From positions 26,662,001 through 26,726,000 of the forward strand of contig CM075987.1 in NCBI GenBank assembly GCA_038087875.1: a DNA stretch of 64,000 bases, written 5' to 3'. Below the pieces are notes generated by a model that was given only the letters and a program-made list of their open reading frames with translations, had not been told where the DNA came from and made no database searches. Shown piece after piece: positions 1-18,194 of this stretch (position 1 is its first letter; each line of letters starts with the position of its first letter). This DNA is from Malacoraja senta (taxonomy: Eukaryota). Position numbers and translations under genes: made by a program.

Positions 1-559
1 AACCCCCCCCCCCCACCACGGGTGGCCGGAGAGGTCGGCAGCAAAGATCCTCCGCTATAGGATCTTTGGTCGGGAGTCAGACGGGCGCGGTGCCCCCCAG
101 GCCCACAGCCAGCGCAGAGAAACAGCGCTAAACCCAGCTCAACTCTGCCTGTCCAACCAGGTGAGCCTATAGCCTTCCTGGACGCGGGAAATATGGCCAG
201 CGCGGAGAAGCAGCGCTGGTGTCCCGTCAGTCCAGGCAGGGCTGTAGTTAACCCGGTGAGACAGGCAGAGTTGAGCTGCATTTAGCGCTGGATTGAGCCT
301 CCGAAGCCTCGCGTGTGTGTGTGTGAGCGTGCGCATGCGCGCGCGGCCGACAAAAAATTGTGTCCCCCGTCCCCTCCATGTTTTGATAGCGAGTTCCGTT
401 CTTGATGAGAGGAAGAGATCGGGTAGATGCACAGAGTCCCTTGCCCAGAGAAGGGCAATCGAGGACCTCAGGTGCTGACTGTGTGTGGAGTTTGTACCTC
501 CTCCGATTGTATCGGGGAGCTCCGGTTTCCTCCCACATCCCATTGACATGCGGACATGT

Positions 560-625
560 ATTCCGGTTAGCACGCAACAAAAGCTTTTCACTGTACCTCG
601 GTACACGTGGCAATAAACTAAACTG
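560..625 (+). mobile_element. Short 3' tail fragment of a Rex1/Babar-type LINE
   Basis: ggttagcacgcaacaaaagcttttcactgtacctcggtacacgtggcaataaactaaact; the same tail in reverse is attached to Rex1-like coding remnants at 28325-28715. Confidence 0.7.
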
Positions 626-761
626 CAAACCGTAAACCATCACTGACGAACTTGTGAACTTAGGTTTGCTCTTCAATCTTTTGTCCCTCGTTTCAAAATA
701 GATCCTTTGGTTATTTAACGTTGTGGCCATTTGTCGTGCTCAAATTGGCGGTTGTATTCAA

Positions 762-850
762 GATATTTCAACAGCAAATATATATTTAAAATACTTAATT
801 GGCTGTAAAGTGCTTTGGGGGCATCGTAAGGTCACGGGAGGTGCAGCATT
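762..850 (+). mobile_element. Degraded DeuSINE-like (SacSINE1/AmnSINE-type) L2-derived 3' end
   Basis: tacttaattggctgtaaagtgctttggggg resembles the recalled DeuSINE tail tacttcattggctgtaaagcgctttggg. Confidence 0.4.
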
Positions 851-1104
851 AATGCTCCTCCTTCAGTTTATATTCTGCAATTAAACTGGCATTCATTTAA
901 CTCTCTTGCCAATTATGTAGTTTTACAGTTTACGACCCTGAAATAGGTCTGTGTAACGACAAAATTAAAAAAATGTGCTGCAGAGTTTAAAATGACATTA
1001 ATGCGGAGTGAGAAATGTTTTGTGAACTTTATTTGGGGGGGGGGGGAAGCTAAGGGTGGGGGGGGGGGGTACTGAACGAGGGTGGGTCGGTGTAAATTTG
1101 TACA

Positions 1105-1750
1105 TTGTACAAGACCGAGATGAGGAAAAACTTTTTCACACAGAGAGTGGTGAATCTCTGGAACTCTCTGCCACAGAGGGTAGTTGAGGCCAGTTCATTG
1201 GCTATATATTTTTTATTTTTTTATTTTTATTTTATTAGAAGTAAGTACAATTGTATACAATCATATTTTCATAATACCTTTTATGTACAGCTTCTTATTT
1301 TAAATTTTTTTTGAAATAAAGAAGAAAAAGAAAAAAGTTAGATAATGAAAAATAGAAAAATGTGAGATATATAGTGTGTGAAAAAGAAAAATAAAGAATG
1401 AAATAAGAAAGTTGAGACATAGAAAATAGAAGAGAGAGAATAAAAGAAAAGATGAGAAGAAAAGAAAATAGAAGGAGATCATTTATAATCTTGACCATCC
1501 GCAGTCACGGATTAGCTTTTACACCTGTTTTGCACCATACGTTTCCAAAAAGACGACAAACATTGGCTATATTTAAGAGGGAGTTAGATGTGGCCCTTGT
1601 GGCAAAGGGGATCAGGGGGTATGGAGAGAAGGCAGGTACGGGATACTGAGTTGGATGATCAGCCATGATCATATTGAATGGCGGTGCCGGCTCGAAGGGC
1701 CGAATGGCCTACTCCTGCACCTATTTTCTATGTATCTATGTATCTATGTA
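1105..1750 (+). mobile_element. CR1 LINE 3' end, interrupted by an L1 fragment
   Basis: Translates as MRKNFFTQRVVNLWNSLP...IFKRELDVALVAKGIRGYG; 3' UTR with (tatctatg)n tail. Confidence 0.9.
1208..1560 (-). mobile_element. L1-type 3' end inserted in CR1
   Basis: Reverse complement resembles the 3' end of the L1 at ~11300-11643 (tacttacttctaataaaataaaa); 12-bp TSD cattggctatat at 1196-1207 and 1561-1572. Confidence 0.85.
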
Positions 1751-2000
1751 CATTTCCTTTAACATCGTCTGCTTTGATCTGTCCTTTTCACACCTTACGT
1801 CCTCTTTATACCCTTCCATATCTCTGTTTTCCCTCTATAAGATCACCCCCTCATCCTCCTGCGCTCCAAGGAACAGAGTCCCAGCCTTCACCTAAACCCA
1901 TGTCCTCTGGTCCTCGATTCCCCTACTCTGGGCAAGTGGCTGCGTGCGTCTACTCGATCTATTCCTCTCATGATTTTGTACACCTGTATAACAACACCCT

Positions 2001-2052
2001 GGCCCCACAGCAGAAGCGTCCACGTCCACGTCGCGTGGCCTGGCTTCTGCTA
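2001..2052 (+). ncRNA. Degenerate HDV-like (CPEB3-like) ribozyme
   Basis: P2 AGCAGAA/UUCUGCU, P3 GCG/CGC, L3 UCCACGU (with CCACGU duplicated), P1 GGCCCC/GUGGCC(U), then GG able to form P1.1; P4 and J4/2 GAA missing. Confidence 0.65.
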
Positions 2053-2176
2053 CCACCATCATCTATTGCCACAAGTGATGGCTCCCACTGATTGTCGCCG
2101 GAGGCTTGCGTCCTTTTCAGGACGGACGATGACAGCGAGGTCAACATTTGTAACAGATGGACACGAAAAGAAGAAG
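2001..2176 (+). mobile_element. Short non-autonomous retroelement with HDV/CPEB3-like ribozyme head and (GAA)n tail (probable internally deleted Vingi/Ingi derivative)
   Basis: Interrupts CR1; TSD acaacaccct (1991-2000) / acatcaccct (2177-2186); ends acacgaaaagaagaag. Confidence 0.75.
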
Positions 2177-2684
2177 ACATCACCCTTTCAACCTCCTGCG
2201 CTCCAAGGAACAGAGTCCCAGCCTGCGCAACCTCTCCCTATAGCTCAGACCCTCGAGTCCTGGCATCTTAGATTATAAATTGTCACTGTGGCAAAATGAA
2301 AGAGAAAACTCTGCACTTGAGAACTTCTTTGTCATTATCAGCAAACAGTTCCTTATGACCTCCATGGCAGTAGATCAATCAATTTACAGAATATTCTGCA
2401 TGCTGTTTCAATCTCAGGCAAATAAGTGCTTTCAAACCATTTCCACACCAGTAAAAACCTACCAGATGACTTTGAGAAACATTATGCATTTGTTATCGTG
2501 ACATTATCTTACACCACTGTATTTAAATGACAGGGTGGCGCAGCGGTAGAGTTGCTGCCTCACAGCGCCAGAGACCCGGGTTCAATCCTGACTACGGGTG
2601 CCGTTCTTAAGACACTCAGTCTGAAGAAGTGTCTCGACGTGAAACATCACCCATTCCGTCTTTCCAGAGATGCTGTCTCTCTCC

Positions 2685-3070
2685 TCGAGGGACTGAGCTA
2701 TAGGGAGAGGTTGAGCAGGCTGGGACTCTATTCCTTGGAGCGCAGGAGGATGAGGGGTGATCTTATAGAGGTGTATAAAATCATGAGAGGAATAGGTCGG
2801 GTAGATGCACAGAGTCTCTTGCCCAGAGTAGATGAATCGAGGACCAGAGGACATAGGTTTAAGGTGAAGGGGAAAAGATTTAATCAGAATCTAAGGGGTA
2901 ACTTTTTCCACAAAGAGGGTGATGGGTGTATGGAATGAGCTGCCAGAGGAGGTAGTTGAGGCAGCGACTGTCCCAACGTTTAAGAAATAGTTAGACAGGT
3001 ACATGGATAGGACAGGTTTGGAGGGATATGGACCCAACGCAGGCAGGTGGGACTAGTGTAGCTGGGACAC
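2685..3070 (+). mobile_element. CR1 LINE 3' fragment
   Basis: LEGLSYRERLSRLGLYSLERRRMRGDLIEVYKIMRGIGRVDAQSLLPRV. Confidence 0.9.
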
Positions 3071-3477
3071 GTTCACAAGTTATAGGAGTAGAATTGGGCC
3101 ATTTGGCCCATCGAGTCTACTCCACCATTCAATCATGGCTGATCTCTGCCTCCTAATCCAATTTTCCCGCCTTCTCCCCATTACCCTTGACACCCGTTCT
3201 AATCAAGAATCTATCTATCTCTGCCTTAAAAACATCCACTGATTTGGCCTCCACAGCCCTCTGTGGCAATGGGTTCCACAGATTCACCACCCTCTAACTA
3301 AAGGTCTGGGCAAGTTGGCCAGTCTGGGCAAGTTGGGCCGAAGGGCCTGTTCCCACGCTGTATGACTCTATGTCTCCATTAAAGAGAACATCTCTTCTGA
3401 AGGTGATGTTAACCATTGTTCTGCTGAGATTTCTATCAGTAAACCTGCGACACGGACCTGCCAACTGCACATGACCA

Positions 3478-3757
3478 AAGGTAGACAAAAGTGCTGGAGA
3501 AACTCAGCGGGTGCAGCAGCATCTATGGAGCGAAGGAAATAGGCAACATTTCGGGACGAAACCCTTCCGGGTTTCGGCCCGAAACGTTGCCTATTTCCTT
3601 CTGGGTTTCGGCCCGAAACGTTGCCTATTTCCTTCTGGGTTTCGGCCCGAAAAACGTTGCCTATTTCCTTCGCTCCATAGATGCTGCTGCACCCGCTGAG
3701 TTTCTCCAGCACTTTTGTCTACCTTCGATTTTCCAGCATCTGCAGTTCCTTCTTATA
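3478..3757. mobile_element. Foldback (inverted pLTR) mini-element of Penelope-like origin
   Basis: ~80-bp arms aaggtagacaaaagtgctggag.../...ctccagcacttttgtctacctt; centre holds 3 tandem gggtttcggcccgaaacgttgcctatttcctt units; TSD aactgcacatgacca (3463-3477) / aactgcagatgacca (3758-3772). Confidence 0.8.
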
Positions 3758-4169
3758 AACTGCAGATGACCAGTTCTTTCCAGTGGCTGGATGAGTGCAG
3801 GATAAATGAAACAAGTGACCTTCAGGCCTGTCTGATAAACTCTCCCCTCTACATCTTAAATGATGGCAACTGCAAGAAAATCAACGCAAAGGGAAGCCTA
3901 ACAATGATTTTGTTTAAACTACCTTGTCAAATGTTGTGATCTTTTCAACACATTTTGAAACACCACAAAGGAAGACATGAAACAACCTATTAATAACAAA
4001 AAATATCAGAGAAATATTTATCTTTTATTGGCTTCTGAAAGGATCCGAGCATCCCCAGTAAAGTAAATTTATTGATCAACGGAGAACGCTCCCCACAAAT
4101 AACCACATGAGATTTTAATAGAAAACTAGACTGCAGCTAATCGAATTAGCATGGAAGCAGCTAATAAGA

Positions 4170-5012
4170 CACATAGAGACACAGTCATAGAGATACAGAG
4201 TCACAGAGTCACAGAGTCACAGAGACACAGAGACACAGAGACACAGAGTCACAGAGTCACAGAGACACAGAGACACAGAGTCACAGAGACACAGAGACAC
4301 AGAGTCACAGAGACACAGAGACACAGAGTCACAGAGACACAGAGGCACAGAGTCAGAGAGTCACAGAGACACAGGGACAAAGGGACACAGAGACACAGAG
4401 ACACAGAGTCACAGAGACACAGAGTCACAGAGTCACAGAGTCACAGTCACAGAGACACAGAGACAGAGAGACAGAGAGACACAGAGTCACAGAGACACAG
4501 AGTCACAGAGACACAGAGTCACAGAGACACAGAGTCACAGAGTCACAGTCACAGAGACACAGAGACACAGAGTCACAGAGACACAGAGTCACAGAGACAC
4601 AGAGACACAGAGACACAGAGACACAGAGACACAGAGACACAGTCACACAGAGTCACAGAGTCACAGAGTCACAGAGACACAGAGACACAGAGACACAGAG
4701 ACACAGAGACACAGTCACAGAGACACAGAGACACAGAGACATAGTCACAGAGACACAGAGACACAGAGACACAGAGACACAGAGACATAGAGTCACAGAG
4801 ACACAGAGACACAGAGACACAGAGACACAGAGACACAGAGACACAGAGACACAGAGACATAGAGTCACAGAGACACAGAGACACAGAGACACAGAGTCAC
4901 AGAGACACACAGACACAGAGTCACAGAGACACAGTCACAGAGACACAGAGACACAGAGACACAGAGACACAGAGACACAGTCAAAGAGACACAGAGACAC
5001 AGTCACAGAGAC
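4170..5012. repeat. Compound 8-bp microsatellite (ACACAGAG/TCACAGAG)n, ~840 bp
   Basis: Directly visible tandem array. Confidence 0.97.
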
Positions 5013-5629
5013 CCAGGTCTCTGGCGCTGTGAGGCAGCAACTCTACCGCGCCGCCCTAATGGTGACAAGTCTAAGAAAAAATAGCACAAATGGAAGCCTC
5101 ATTCTCCAACTGAAACCTCATAAATGCCAAGTTATTTTATGTTCTACAGGATTTCCTCAAGAATGGGTGGAATTTATTTAGCCAGAGGGTGGCAAATCTG
5201 TGGAATTTACAGCCACAGATGGTGGGGGAGGCCAAGCCATTGGGTATTTTTTAAGCAGAGAGATAGGTTCTTGATTAGTGAGGGCCAATGAAAGGTTACA
5301 GGGAAGAAGGCAGGAGAATGGGGTTGAGTGTGGAAAATAGATCAGCCGTGATCAAATGGTGGCACAGACTCAATGGGCCGAATGGCCTAATTCTGCTCCT
5401 ATGTATGTCTTATGAAGTATATTATTACACATTTATAAAGCACATTCATAAGTATTATTAAGCATAATTCTGTAAACTGAAAAGGCAAGGAACTGCAGAT
5501 GCTGGTTTACACTGAAGATAGACACAAAATGCTGGAGTAACTCAGCGGGACAGGCAGCTTCACTGGAGTGAAGGAATGGGTGATGTTTCGGATCGAGACC
5601 TTTCTTCAGACCATAAGTCTGACCATAAG

Positions 5630-6200
5630 TAAAAACAGGATGTAACGCTGAGTCTCTATAAGGCGCTGGTCAAGGCCGCATTTGGAATATTGTGAGCAAT
5701 TTTAGGCACCATATCTGAGGAAGGATGTGCTGGCTCTGGAGAGGGTCCAGAGGAGGTTTACGAGAATGATCCCAGGAATGAGTAGGTTAACATAGGATGA
5801 GCGTTTGTCGGCACTGGGCCTGTACTCGCTGGAGTTTAGAAGGATGAGGAGGGACCTCATTGAAAAGTACAGAACCGTGAAAGGCTTGGATAGAGTGGAT
5901 GTGGAGAGGATGTTTCCATCAGTGGGAGAGTCCAGGACCAGAGGTCACAGCCTCAGAATTAAAGGATGTTCTTTTAGGAGGGGGAAGTGCAGAAATTTCT
6001 TTCGGCAGAGGGTGGTGAATCTGTGGAATTCTTTGTCATAGAAAGCTGTGGAGGCCAAGTCAGTGAATATATTTAAAGGCAGAGATAGATAGATTCTTGA
6101 TTAGTACGGGTGTCAGGCGTTATGGGGAGAAGGCTGGAGAATGGTGTTAGGAGGGAACGATAGATCAGCGGAGTAGACTTGATGGGCCGAATGGCTTAAT
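5630..6200 (+). mobile_element. CR1 LINE 3' fragment
   Basis: [17 protein letters not shown] region then LGLYSLEFRRMRRDLIEKY...VVNLWNSL. Confidence 0.9.
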
Positions 6201-7844: not shown

Positions 7845-10800
7845 TACATTAACATCATACATTATGCAACCCCACTAACTATGATAAATATTTACGCTCC
7901 AAATTTTGACAACCCCCAATTTTTAAATAAAATTATAGATATAATATCAGAGTTTAATTACCAAAATGTAATAATAGGGGGGGGACTTCAATTGTGTTTT
8001 AGATCCATATTTAGACAAATCAGCAAAGCAAAGGAGGGGTAATTCAAAATCTAAGACTAGTGAACTTCTAAATATATATATAAAAAATACTAATATAACA
8101 GATGTATGGAGAATTGCGAATCCAGTTGGAAGAGAATACCCGTTTTACTCATCGGTGCACAAAACTTATTCACGAATTGACTATTTTTTAGTGGATATGA
8201 AACTAATGCCTTATACGATTAATCCAACATACCATATCAGCAGTATTACCGATCACTCTCCGTTGACATTTTTAGTAAAATTCGAGGGAATGCCGGGTAA
8301 AAAATCTTTTTGGAGGTTTAATCCACATATTTTAAACGACTTACAATGTTATCAATATATAAAACAACAAATGAAACTTGTTTTTGAGATAAATGATACA
8401 CCAGGTATTTCGCCTTCTTTATTATGGGAAACTTTCAAGGCATTTATTAGAGGAATTATAATTTCATATCAAATTTTTCAAAATAAAAAGAATAAGACAG
8501 AACAAATGTTGCTAGAACAAGAAATTAGACAGTTAGAGTTAGATAATGCCAAAGATTCTACTACAGATAAACATAATAATATAATACTACTGAAATTTAA
8601 ACTTAATCAAATTTTATCGGCAAGAGTAATAAGATTATTCCAAATTACAAAACAGGAATATTTTGAATTTGGTGACAAACCACATAAGCTTTTTAGCTCG
8701 TCAATTGAAAAAACAAGAAAAGGAAAATACTATAACTAAAATTAAATCAGAGAAAGGTGAATTACTAATATTACCTAAAGATATTAACAATAGATTTGCT
8801 CAATTTTATCAAAATTTATATACATCTAAAACCAAAATAGAAGATAGTAAAATTATACATTTTTTAGATAACTGTAATCTTCCAAAACTAGATCTTTCGG
8901 AACAAGAGGAAATTGGAGCTCAGATCACACTTGAAGAAATAGGTGAAACAATAAAATAGTTGAAAAATGGCGACACCTGGACCAGGTGGTTTTAGTAATG
9001 AATTTTATAAAAAATTTCATGAGATAACGACTCCATATTTATTTAATTTATATACTCACGCTTTTAAAGAAAATAAACTACCTGAAACATTAGCAGAATC
9101 AACTATTACGCTTATTCCAAAAAAAGATAAAGATCTAGAGGACCCGGGCTCATATAGAGCTATATCACTTTTAAATACAGACCAGAAAATTTTAGCAAAG
9201 ACTTTAGCCAGAAGATTAAGTAAATATATTAGTAAACTGATAAACCCTGATCAAACGGGGTTTATACCCAAAAGACATTCATTTAATAATTTGAGACGCC
9301 TGTTTAATATAATGTACTCACATAAAACGGAGGAAGAAGATATATCAATTATTTCTCTGGACGCAGAGAAAGCATTTGATCAGGTAGAGTGGCAGTATTT
9401 AAATAAATTACTGCAAAAATTTAATATGGGAGAGAATTTTATTACCTGGGTAAAATTATTATATGATAAACCAATGGCAAGAATACTATCTAATAATATG
9501 TTATCTCCAAAATTTCAATTATTAAGGGGCAATAGGCAGGGATGTGCGTTATCTCCCCTGCTATTTGCCCTTATGATAGAGCCCTTGGCTGAAAGTATAA
9601 GAATTCATCCAAATATTCAGGGTTACAATACTAAGGACTCAAATAATAAAATTCCATTATATGCAGACGATATACTTCTATATATTACAAATTCACAAAC
9701 GAGTATACCAAATTTATTAAATTTCATAGAGGAATTCGGGTCCTTTTCTGGATATAGAATAAACTGGAATAAAAGTGAAATCATGACGTTAAAACCTCAA
9801 GAATCTATACACTTACTGAAATTCCCCTTTAAAATTGCAACAAAAAAATTTAAATATTTGGGTATTCAAATTACTAGAAAATATAAAGCTTTATTCAATG
9901 CTAATTTTATGCCTTTATTAAATACACTCAATACGTTGATTAAATTTTGGAAAACACTTCCTTTATCCTTAATAGGCAGAATAAATGCTATAAAAATTAT
10001 CTGTCTACCACAATTACTATACCTATTTCAATCTATACCATTATATATACCAAAATATATATTTTTTAAATTAGACTCTAATATTACTAATTTTATTTGG
10101 GATTATAGATCACACAGAATTAAAAACAAACACTTATGTAAACCAAAAGATGTCGGGGGACTTTCACTCCCGAATTTTTTGTATTACTATTGGGCAGTAC
10201 ATATTAAGAATATAATTTACTGGTTGGACAGTTCAACCCAACAGGCAGAATGGATAAGAATGGAGAAAGAGGATTGTTTTCCTTGTAATATAGGAACGAT
10301 CCTCTTCTCCCCGAAAAAACTGAACAACACAATATAAGAAGAACCCAATTATACACGATACAATAAGAATTTGGAAACAAATAAAATTATCTCTAAAATT
10401 AAGAAATTTATCATTGTTAATGCCAATAGCGAATAATCCTTTATTTAAACCATCTCTTATTGATAAAACATATAACCAATGGGAAAGATTGGGAATTAAA
10501 AGGATCGGTGATATGTATGAAATGGGAAATCTGTTATCATTCCAACAATTACAATTAAAATTTAAATTGAAAAATAATCAATATTTTAAATACCTTCAGA
10601 TATGTGATTTCATGAAGAAATACATACAAGGATATCAAAAAATAACTTTTAATTCACTGGAAGAAGTAATGAATATTAAGGCTGACACAGAAGTTAATAT
10701 CATATTTATATAATAGTATTTTAAATATAGACTTACCATCGACAGAGGTACTTAGAGAAGAGTGGGAACGGGAATTAATAATTAATGATAAAAATTACGA

Positions 10801-17337: not shown

Positions 17338-18065
17338 AAGTCAAGTCAAGTCAAGTCAAGTGAGTTTATTGTCATGTGTCCCTGGTAGGACAATGAAATT
17401 CTTGCTTTGCTGCAGCACAACAGAACATAGTAGGCATTTACTACAAGGCATTCTATAAATATATACACAATGGTCAATATACTGATAAAGTGCAAATAAC
17501 AGTATTGGCTAGTAAAGTTCAGTGTTATGTCCGAGCCAGGTTTAATAGCCTGATGGCTGTGGGGAAGTAGCTATTCCTGAACCTGGTCGTTGCAGTCTTC
17601 AGGCTCCTGTACCTTCTACCTGAAGGTAGTAGGGAGATGAGTGTGTGGCCAGGATGGTGTGGGTCCTTGATGATGCTGCCAGCCTTTTTGAGGCAGCGAC
17701 TGTGGTAGATCCCCTCGATGGAAGGGAGGTCAGAGCCAATGATGGACTGGGCAGTGTTTACTACTTTTTGTAGTCTTTTCCTCTCCAGGGCACTCAAGTT
17801 GCCGAACCAAGCCACGATGCAACCGGTCAGCATGCTCTCTACTGTGCACCTGTAGAAGTTAGAGAGAGTCCTCCTTGACAAACCGACTCTCCGTAATCTT
17901 CTCAGGAAGTAGAGGCGCTGATGTGCTTTCTTAATAATGGCATCATTGTTCTCGGACCAGGAAAGATCTTCAGAGATGTGCACTCCCAGGAATTTGAAGC
18001 TCTTGACTCTTTCAACCATCCACCCGTTGATATAAACGGGACTGTGGGTCCCCATCCTACTCCTT
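17338..18065 (-). mobile_element. Rex1/Babar LINE 3' fragment
   Basis: ORF 17525-18055 VERVKSFKFLGVHISEDLSW...KKAHQRLYFLRRL...RFRNSYFPTAIRLLN; (gactt)n tail. Confidence 0.9.
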
Positions 18066-18194
18066 CCAACACATTGCTTCTCCCATTTATCTGCATTCCT
18101 AAAAGAGTGTCAAGTCAACACAGCCACATACAATGATCAAAGACAATCCGTCTTGAAATATCTGGAAGACACGTACAAAGTTTATAATTTCAGT

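Follow-up and report, generated by a model that had tools for sequence, protein, structure and literature searches.

Does a short mobile element in the genome of Malacoraja senta carry the remains of a ribozyme of the CPEB3 type and, if so, what does it say about the origin of the mammalian ribozyme? Among the self-cleaving ribozymes of mammals that of CPEB3 has been studied best, and it has been connected with memory; the mammalian form, represented by Rfam family RF00622, was reportedly described by Salehi-Ashtiani et al. in 2006. The question arises from a stretch of 64,000 nucleotides (assembly GCA_038087875.1, contig CM075987.1, positions 26,662,001–26,726,000, forward strand), here called the window, in which an initial annotation had pointed to a near match to the 5′ half of this ribozyme. 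The element in question occupies window positions 2001–2176 (+ strand). Its best explanation, in which we have high confidence as a whole, is that it is a dead copy of a bipartite nonautonomous long interspersed nuclear element (LINE), a retroelement without long terminal repeats (non-LTR), and that the first 66 bases of its intact relatives are predicted to fold as a self-cleaving ribozyme with the nested double pseudoknot of ribozymes resembling that of hepatitis delta virus (HDV-like) and a sequence of the CPEB3 type.

The window element and its family

The window copy was searched for in its own 1.94 Gb assembly, and all 40 of the candidates that were scored, out of 1,869 at first look, match window positions 2001–2176. 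A 25 nt motif from the body of the element is found at 1,393 genomic sites (up to two mismatches), compared with none for the reversed control. Thirty loci of this family, termed F, were fetched, and 29 sister loci were compared with the window copy by alignment. Full-length copies are about 192 nt long; every full-length match runs from window base 2000/2001 to about 2176/2177. The canonical 5′ end is present in 26 of the 30 loci; in 20 of these 26 a target-site duplication (TSD) of 9–14 nt with at most one mismatch stops exactly one base before G1, the first base of the element. Contigs from public sequencing runs of four organisms have the common sequence ending at the same two boundaries, with unrelated sequence beyond.

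The window insertion is a decayed copy of 176 nt of this nonautonomous retroelement, as is evident from the genomic matches, the sharp ends and the TSDs of the sister copies. The left TSD ACAACACCCT (1991–2000) adjoins the first base of the element and agrees in nine of ten bases with the right TSD ACATCACCCT (2177–2186). The initial annotation was right that the copy begins at the left TSD boundary and also that the flagged stretch forms the 5′ module of a mobile element. Behind this module the element body (2052–2159, + strand) starts with ACCACC and is 96–97% identical to many sister copies. It is followed by a 3′ terminal motif, GACACGAAAAGAAGAAG (2160–2176, + strand), in common with the 3′ end of an RTE-like LINE (family A, below).

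Two pairs of family F loci on contig C1, L007/L008 (about 60 kb apart) and L029/L030 (about 55 kb apart), contain identical insertions with identical flanks. They are segmental duplications or assembly duplicates containing the element, and the two loci of each pair derive from a single insertion. At L017 (1523) a sub-family departs from the reference copy over roughly the last 22 bases before the 3′ end, visible as loose ends in all four runs; the loose-end consensus reads as an alternative end of the short element, ...GGACACGAAAGAAGAAG.

A decayed ribozyme in the window copy

A permissive Rfam scan of window positions 1850–2300 (451 bases) returned a match to RF00622 at 1989–2051 with 19.1 bits and E = 0.016, below the gathering cut-off of 35 bits. 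Rescaled to 64 kb the E-value is about 2, and a gathering scan of the whole window gave no match because this copy is too decayed. By itself the match is weak, and its weight comes from the family context. A chance resemblance to half of a CPEB3 ribozyme would be compatible with the window copy alone, which lacks significance over 64 kb; it is refuted by the sister copies and five further families, which exceed the curated threshold with E-values down to 1e-16, and its probability is negligible.

The remnant (2001–2051, + strand) reads as the initial annotation had it, with P2 (AGCAGAA/UUCUGCU), P3 (GCG/CGC), loop L3 and a GG all retained, and over CCACAGCAGAAGCGU(C/U)CACG a single base differs from the RF00622 consensus. 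Its segments, all on the + strand, are the 5′ strand of P1 (2001–2006), J1/2 (2007–2009), the 5′ strands of P2 (2010–2015) and P3 (2016–2018), L3 with a 6 nt duplication (2019–2031), the 3′ strand of P3 (2032–2034), the damaged 3′ strand of P1 (2035–2041), the GG of P1.1 (2042–2043), a deletion scar at 2044 where P4 and J4/2 were lost, and the 3′ strand of P2 (2045–2051). In the alignment to RF00622 the 20 nt P4 block of the model is missing, and L3 holds an insert of seven bases compared with one in the model. Comparison with the 29 sister loci identifies the duplicated hexamer as TCCACG, gives the 3′ strand of P1 as GTGGCCT instead of GGGGCT and leaves the window copy 22 nt shorter in the P4/J4/2 region. 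When folded without pseudoknots, the window copy forms the P2/P3 hairpin only. The L3 duplication, the damage to P1 and the loss of P4 and J4/2 together mark this copy as a presumably dead ribozyme, as had been proposed.

The ribozyme of intact family F copies

Sister copies begin in the order GGCCCC AUA GCAGAA GCG UCCACGU CGC GGGGCU GG, followed by a short P4 region, CUAA UUCUGCU and then ACCACC. Read in this way, an intact copy has a 6 bp P1 (GGCCCC/GGGGCU) in which G1 faces U, a P1.1 of two C-G pairs between the CC of L3 and the GG, and a J4/2 consisting of C followed by UAA. The pairs of P1.1, here and in the families below, were read by eye, and the catalytic C in J4/2 was placed by the pattern C-N-R-A. 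Eight of the 20 copies scanned reach 35.1–42.8 bits on RF00622. The initial annotation had proposed to ask whether the family restores P1, P4 and CGAA. P1 and a short P4 are indeed restored, and J4/2 is CUAA, not CGAA; all three parts whose absence from the family consensus would have spoken against its idea, namely P1, P4 and J4/2, are present in intact copies.

Further families and covariation

A genome-wide search with RF00622 gave a rough total of 102,231 first-look candidates, about one per 20 kb, of which 59 were scored. Fifty-one of these have E ≤ 1e-3 and 39 lie above the cut-off, the best at 64.2 bits; 14 control genomes had no RF00622 matches. The matches sort into five further element families, A to E, of which all ten representatives score 37–64 bits, with best copies at 44–64 bits. 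None of the 59 scores above the LINE copies described below, which suggests that a mammalian-type single-copy orthologue is absent here. At E ≤ 10 neither the window copy nor a copy of family A has a match to another Rfam ribozyme family.

All five families have the P3-L3-P3′ core AGCGUUCACGUCGCG, with UUCUCGU in family C, together with GU(C) after P1 and C-N-A-A in J4/2. The exact 15-mer of the core occurs 1,456 times in the genome, compared with three times for the reversed control. P1 is 7 bp long in families A–D, with G1 opposite U; in several copies of family E the closing U of P1 faces a variable base (U or A), which leaves the exact start and cleavage register ambiguous. P1.1 is made of a C-G pair plus U:U in families A–E (UUC in L3, then GU after P1) and of two C-G pairs in family F and in the metagenomic locus L077 (below). 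J4/2 is CGAA in A, C and D, CUAA in B, F and L077 and CCAA in E, and it is deleted in the window copy. Directly after the ribozyme, ACCAC follows in families B to E as well as in F. In the CPEB3 ribozyme itself P1.1 (T1) includes a U:U pair; activity is also supported by G:C or C:G at this place (PMC9901934).

Between the families P1, P2 and P4 differ by compensated changes. In an alignment of 31 sequences, 87.1% of the cells are paired, compared with at most 53% when the partners are slid; unpaired cells are to be expected, since decayed genomic copies, among them the window copy, are included. Twelve pairs are changed on both sides (three in P1, four in P2, one in P3 and four in P4), P2 is 95.4% paired with its four covarying pairs, and none of 500 shuffles matched the covariation score.

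Two of the families depart from the others in ways worth recording. Family E (L051, L053, L057–L060) has a ribozyme of about 53 nt without any P4 that still scores 36–44 bits on RF00622; behind it lie ACCACCAC and a GC/AAG-rich stretch. Family C (L042, L044, L046, L052, L055) combines a P1 of the mammalian type with a P4 reading CAGAUUCU...GAAUCUG, similar to that of the model. A DNA search for further family C copies gave only four matches, and the family is old or rare. Its copies are about 86–88% alike and resemble each other over only some 40 nt past the ribozyme before they diverge; L044 has a possible TSD about 300 nt downstream, beyond an A-rich tail.

A probable LINE partner

Family A is a LINE in which the ribozyme is followed by about 35 nt, an ATG and a single open reading frame (ORF). 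The ORFs of 934 and 991 amino acids contain the domains Exo_endo_phos (apurinic/apyrimidinic or AP-endonuclease) and RVT_1 (reverse transcriptase). Both ends are present in nine of the ten copies examined, of which eight measure about 3.1–3.2 kb and one (L068) 3.8 kb. All nine end in ...CAAAGACACGAAAAGAAGAAG, with a tail noted as ...GAAAAGAAGAAG that is (GAA)n-like. An exact duplication of 10–11 nt adjoins G1 in four of the nine and lies at most 2 nt away in two more. Homologues of the ORF with 46–63% identity are found in aphids, moths, crabs, sea urchins, amphioxus, fishes and Anolis under uninformative names, and a protein atlas search with the ORF returned generic reverse-transcriptase clusters only, giving neither taxon nor clade.

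The 3′ end of the LINE coincides with that of the window element in an exact match of 18 bases in L061 (also L049 and L038) and of 16 bases in L062, and the shared motif stands at the ends of nine of the ten LINE copies. In intact copies of the short element the (GAA)n-like tail, too, is that of the LINE. Short elements that use the machinery of a LINE are usually recognized by such a common 3′ end, here of 17–18 bases. At the other end the two have the same type of ribozyme, with different P1 and P4.

RTE-clade elements are about 3 kb long, have a single ORF with an AP-endonuclease followed by a reverse transcriptase and possess a short 3′ untranslated region ending in a short repeat. Family A fits an RTE-like LINE, a placement made from its architecture and these clade features, and this is the first of several points that count against our explanation of the element. 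Among the LINE copies of the genome no parent bearing exactly the P1 and P4 of family F was found. The P4 of family F is short and imperfect in most copies, with T, C or G at one position. Thermodynamic folding of intact copies without pseudoknots reveals no significant stability (z of −0.1 to −1.8), although such folds are uninformative for a double pseudoknot. Finally, the precise 5′ end could also stem from an internal promoter.

This last point can be put more generally: the 5′ module might not, or might no longer, work as a ribozyme in vivo and might act as an internal promoter or a protein-binding structure, with transcription initiation setting the 5′ ends, as for Pr77 of L1Tc. Promoter-driven short interspersed nuclear elements (SINEs) typically have precise 5′ ends as well, and a dual role as promoter and ribozyme is documented for L1Tc in the account given in PMC3383444. 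All four helices covary between families, however, which is expected of an RNA fold and not of a DNA promoter, and the bases of the catalytic core are kept in the many exact copies counted above. LINE copies begin at the same G1 as the short element. ARAGORN finds neither a tRNA-like head nor a tRNA gene in window 1–6000, and a classical SINE head (tRNA-, 5S- or 7SL-derived) is likewise absent, Rfam at the 5′ end giving RF00622 only. We consider a promoter or protein-binding module improbable.

A possible retrotransposition cycle

The ribozyme-bearing nonautonomous LINE that we favour suggests the following cycle. The element would have no promoter of its own and would be transcribed inside longer host or read-through transcripts. 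The fold and the fact that insertions end at G1 suggest that the ribozyme would cut just 5′ of G1, so that the element RNA would start with the ribozyme. The protein of the LINE would then recognize the common 3′ end and insert a copy of the RNA by target-primed reverse transcription, mobilization in trans being indicated by this common end and by the TSDs. In the window copy the ribozyme was later lost. Directly observed parts of the cycle are the fold with its covariation, the ends of the insertions at G1, the common 3′ end, the TSDs and the copy numbers.

Relatives in metagenomes

Fifteen metagenomic loci encode relatives of the LINE ORF, and in the seven that reach its N-terminus two element families can be distinguished. 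The ORF of the first is 51% identical, and the RF00622 match of L077, L078 and L079, which scores 55.6 bits, lies some 150 nt upstream of where the ORF match begins. In L077, 35 of the first 37 bases of the ribozyme equal the RF00622 consensus, including P1 (GGGGGCC/GGCCCCU) and P2 (GCAGAA/UUCUGC), and ACCAC follows. L082 and L083 belong to the same family and are truncated within the ribozyme.

The second family, with an ORF identity of 49%, is represented by L080 and L081. It has neither a CPEB3-type ribozyme upstream of the ORF nor any Rfam match, which counts against our explanation of the element. The two loci share a conserved block upstream of the ORF match, at about 100–500 in L080 and about 1–320 in L081, reading GGGCCCCACC..., ...AAAAAATTCCGGAGGTAAAATAGCTCCCCATTCGAATCTCCGGGTGGGAGCTG.

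Descent or convergence

The ribozyme lineage, found in at least six families here and in a distant LINE outside this genome, appears from its sequences to be the closest relative of the CPEB3 ribozyme so far. As a candidate source and outgroup it is the first concrete one that we found. The initial annotation had suggested that the mammalian ribozyme may descend from a related retroelement family. Families scoring up to 64 bits, among them the metagenomic LINE, the lack of matches to other ribozyme families of Rfam, helix sequences that the structure leaves free and the U:U pair of P1.1 in A–E favour this idea, and descent is plausible. We think it probable, if only just, that the mammalian CPEB3 ribozyme arose by exaptation of the 5′ end of an RTE-type retrotransposon or a short derivative and shares common descent with this lineage.

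Some results call for caution. Family F is among the less CPEB3-like families (35–43 bits). The case against common descent comes from viral contigs of IMG/VR, which carry complete HDV-like folds with an identical 16 nt P3-L3-P3′ core. Eleven of these matches have seven of seven P1 pairs plus a partner for P2. At five viral loci P1 (GGCCCC/GGGGCU), the GG of P1.1 and the CUAA of J4/2 equal those of family F; P2 and P4 are unrelated. On RF00622 the viral ribozymes score 20.4–24.6 bits, about the same as the dead window copy.

Because viral ribozymes share the core, and some of them P1 too, part of the CPEB3 likeness is attributable to functional constraint. The agreement of 21 in 22 nucleotides, on which the initial annotation had relied, holds as a count, with the one difference from the consensus noted above, and loses much of its force as evidence of kinship: some 20–25 bits, and most of this agreement, come from the core of the fold itself, and identity in P1 can be convergent. 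Convergence could go further. Working HDV-like ribozymes may look like CPEB3 not by descent but through a narrow sequence optimum of the fold, consisting of a GC-rich P1 with G1.U, GCG/CGC in P3, UYCACGU in L3 and C-N-R-A in J4/2. The short helices have low complexity, kinship of the viral ribozymes with an animal retroelement is implausible even where P1, P1.1 and J4/2 agree as well as the core, and the class is described as having only six invariant nucleotides, so that structure-based searches find it everywhere (PMC8256844). Viral scores nevertheless stay far below the 44–64 bits of the best A–E copies and the 55.6 bits of L077. The surplus in these, and in F (35–43 bits), sits at positions that the lineage itself leaves free to vary: P2 around GCAGAA, which is identical in F and L077 and has one compensated change in C; P1, which both L077 and C have as GGGGGCC/GGCCCCU; J1/2; GUC with the U:U of P1.1 in A–E; GCGAAU; and the P4 of family C. 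We regard convergence as a serious possibility.

Several further observations concern the viral and prokaryotic sequences. The viral loci are L287, L266, L239, L252, L288 (about 1475–1542), L232, L303 and L289, some on contigs of 75–123 kb. L275 and L276 are two ribozyme sites 827 bases apart on one contig, and L289 reaches 36.2 bits, below the cut-off of 44, on HDV-F-prausnitzii. In the five viral loci scanned, over at most 1.5 kb on each side and in one case only 392 bases, no tRNA gene was found near the ribozyme. In bacterial and archaeal genomes the exact core gave at least 120 matches, which a check of the fold identified, all but at most one, as chance occurrences in GC-rich DNA.

If common descent with the retroelement lineage holds, the retroelement ribozymes would be the missing outgroup that dates and explains a 'mammal-only' ribozyme, and the lineage would travel with LINEs through distant animal hosts. 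The families that pass the curated CPEB3 model make the question of origin directly testable. They would also provide natural variants for structure–function work, with compensated P1, P2 and P4, U:U versus C:G in P1.1 and a form without P4. Ribozyme-headed RTE-type LINEs and their short derivatives would be extended to a large, vertebrate-like genome with thousands of copies. Our literature searches brought up no account of a CPEB3-type ribozyme in a non-mammal or of its source element; an earlier one may exist.

Surroundings of the element

The window element is nested in other repeats, and those on its flanks may resemble repeats of cartilaginous fishes. A 33 nt direct repeat, CCTCCTGCGCTCCAAGGAACAGAGTCCCAGCCT, is found at 1856–1890 and 2194–2226, and inverted copies of this flanking repeat lie a few hundred bases away (1680–1735 and 2531–2600 were noted). 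The stretch 2531–2600 looks tRNA-like, and ARAGORN makes no call there. Further away, an open frame of 457 amino acids at 8964–10334 (+ strand) contains RVT_1 (E = 7e-40), and frames at 17528–18109 (− strand) and 53014–53703 (− strand) contain the Pfam domain ALKBH8_N; all are remains of transposons. Pfam on the 78 window ORFs of at least 100 amino acids gave RVT_1, ALKBH8_N and three weak matches below threshold, with no host gene seen.

Comparison with known systems

The retroelement ribozymes have the fold, P3 and L3 of the CPEB3 ribozyme and score above the cut-off of its model (F at 35–43, A up to 64.2 and L077 at 55.6 bits). In addition, P2 is the same in F and L077, P1 is the same in L077 and C, the P4 of family C is similar, and A–E keep the GUC after P1, the U:U in P1.1 and GCGAAU in J4/2. 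They differ in number and place: thousands of copies are scattered at element 5′ ends, instead of one copy, conserved in mammals, in an intron of CPEB3. Family F further differs in its 6 bp P1 of another sequence, the C:G pairs of P1.1, CUAA and an unrelated, weak P4.

R2, RTE, Baggins and L1Tc elements are established carriers of HDV-like ribozymes at their 5′ ends (PMC6765202, PMC8256844, PMC7761336). As in those elements, the ribozyme comes first, just upstream of the LINE ORF, and a cut 5′ of G1 would keep it on the RNA, probably with the same dependence on co-transcription. Here, however, the sequence is of the CPEB3 type, with no match to the drz or HDV families of Rfam, and the host is a 1.94 Gb genome with vertebrate-like repeats, not an insect or a trypanosome.

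Short derivatives of such LINEs, SIDEs and NARTc, are also established according to PMC3414825 and PMC5786205. The window element resembles the bipartite nonautonomous LINEs (RTE, Ingi, R2) treated by Kojima (2018; PMC5786205) in being short, in combining a LINE-type 5′ ribozyme with a LINE 3′ end and in its probable mobilization in trans. Compared with these, with the SIDEs of R2 described by Eickbush and Eickbush (2012; PMC3414825) and with NARTc, only its last 17–18 nt match the LINE that was found, and its P1, its P4 and a body of about 105 nt have no LINE parent among those found.

HDV-like ribozymes of phages, such as the theta ribozymes reported by Kienbeck et al. (2024; PMC10879173) and the IMG/VR examples above, share the P3-L3-P3′ core, and some share the P1, the GG of P1.1 and the CUAA of family F. 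They differ in their unrelated P2 and P4, in their location in phage genomes and in scoring only 20–25 bits on RF00622.

For the step from mobile element to host gene there is a precedent. After dealing with the domestication of transposons, the relevant part of PMC7761336 lists the CPEB3 ribozyme among conserved ribozymes that were likely kept for new functions and leaves the source element unnamed there. The same article (de la Peña et al., 2020) discusses the intronic hammerhead ribozymes of amniotes as domesticated retroelement ribozymes. They belong to another class of ribozyme, and they illustrate how a host can keep the ribozyme of a mobile element in an intron, as would have happened in CPEB3.

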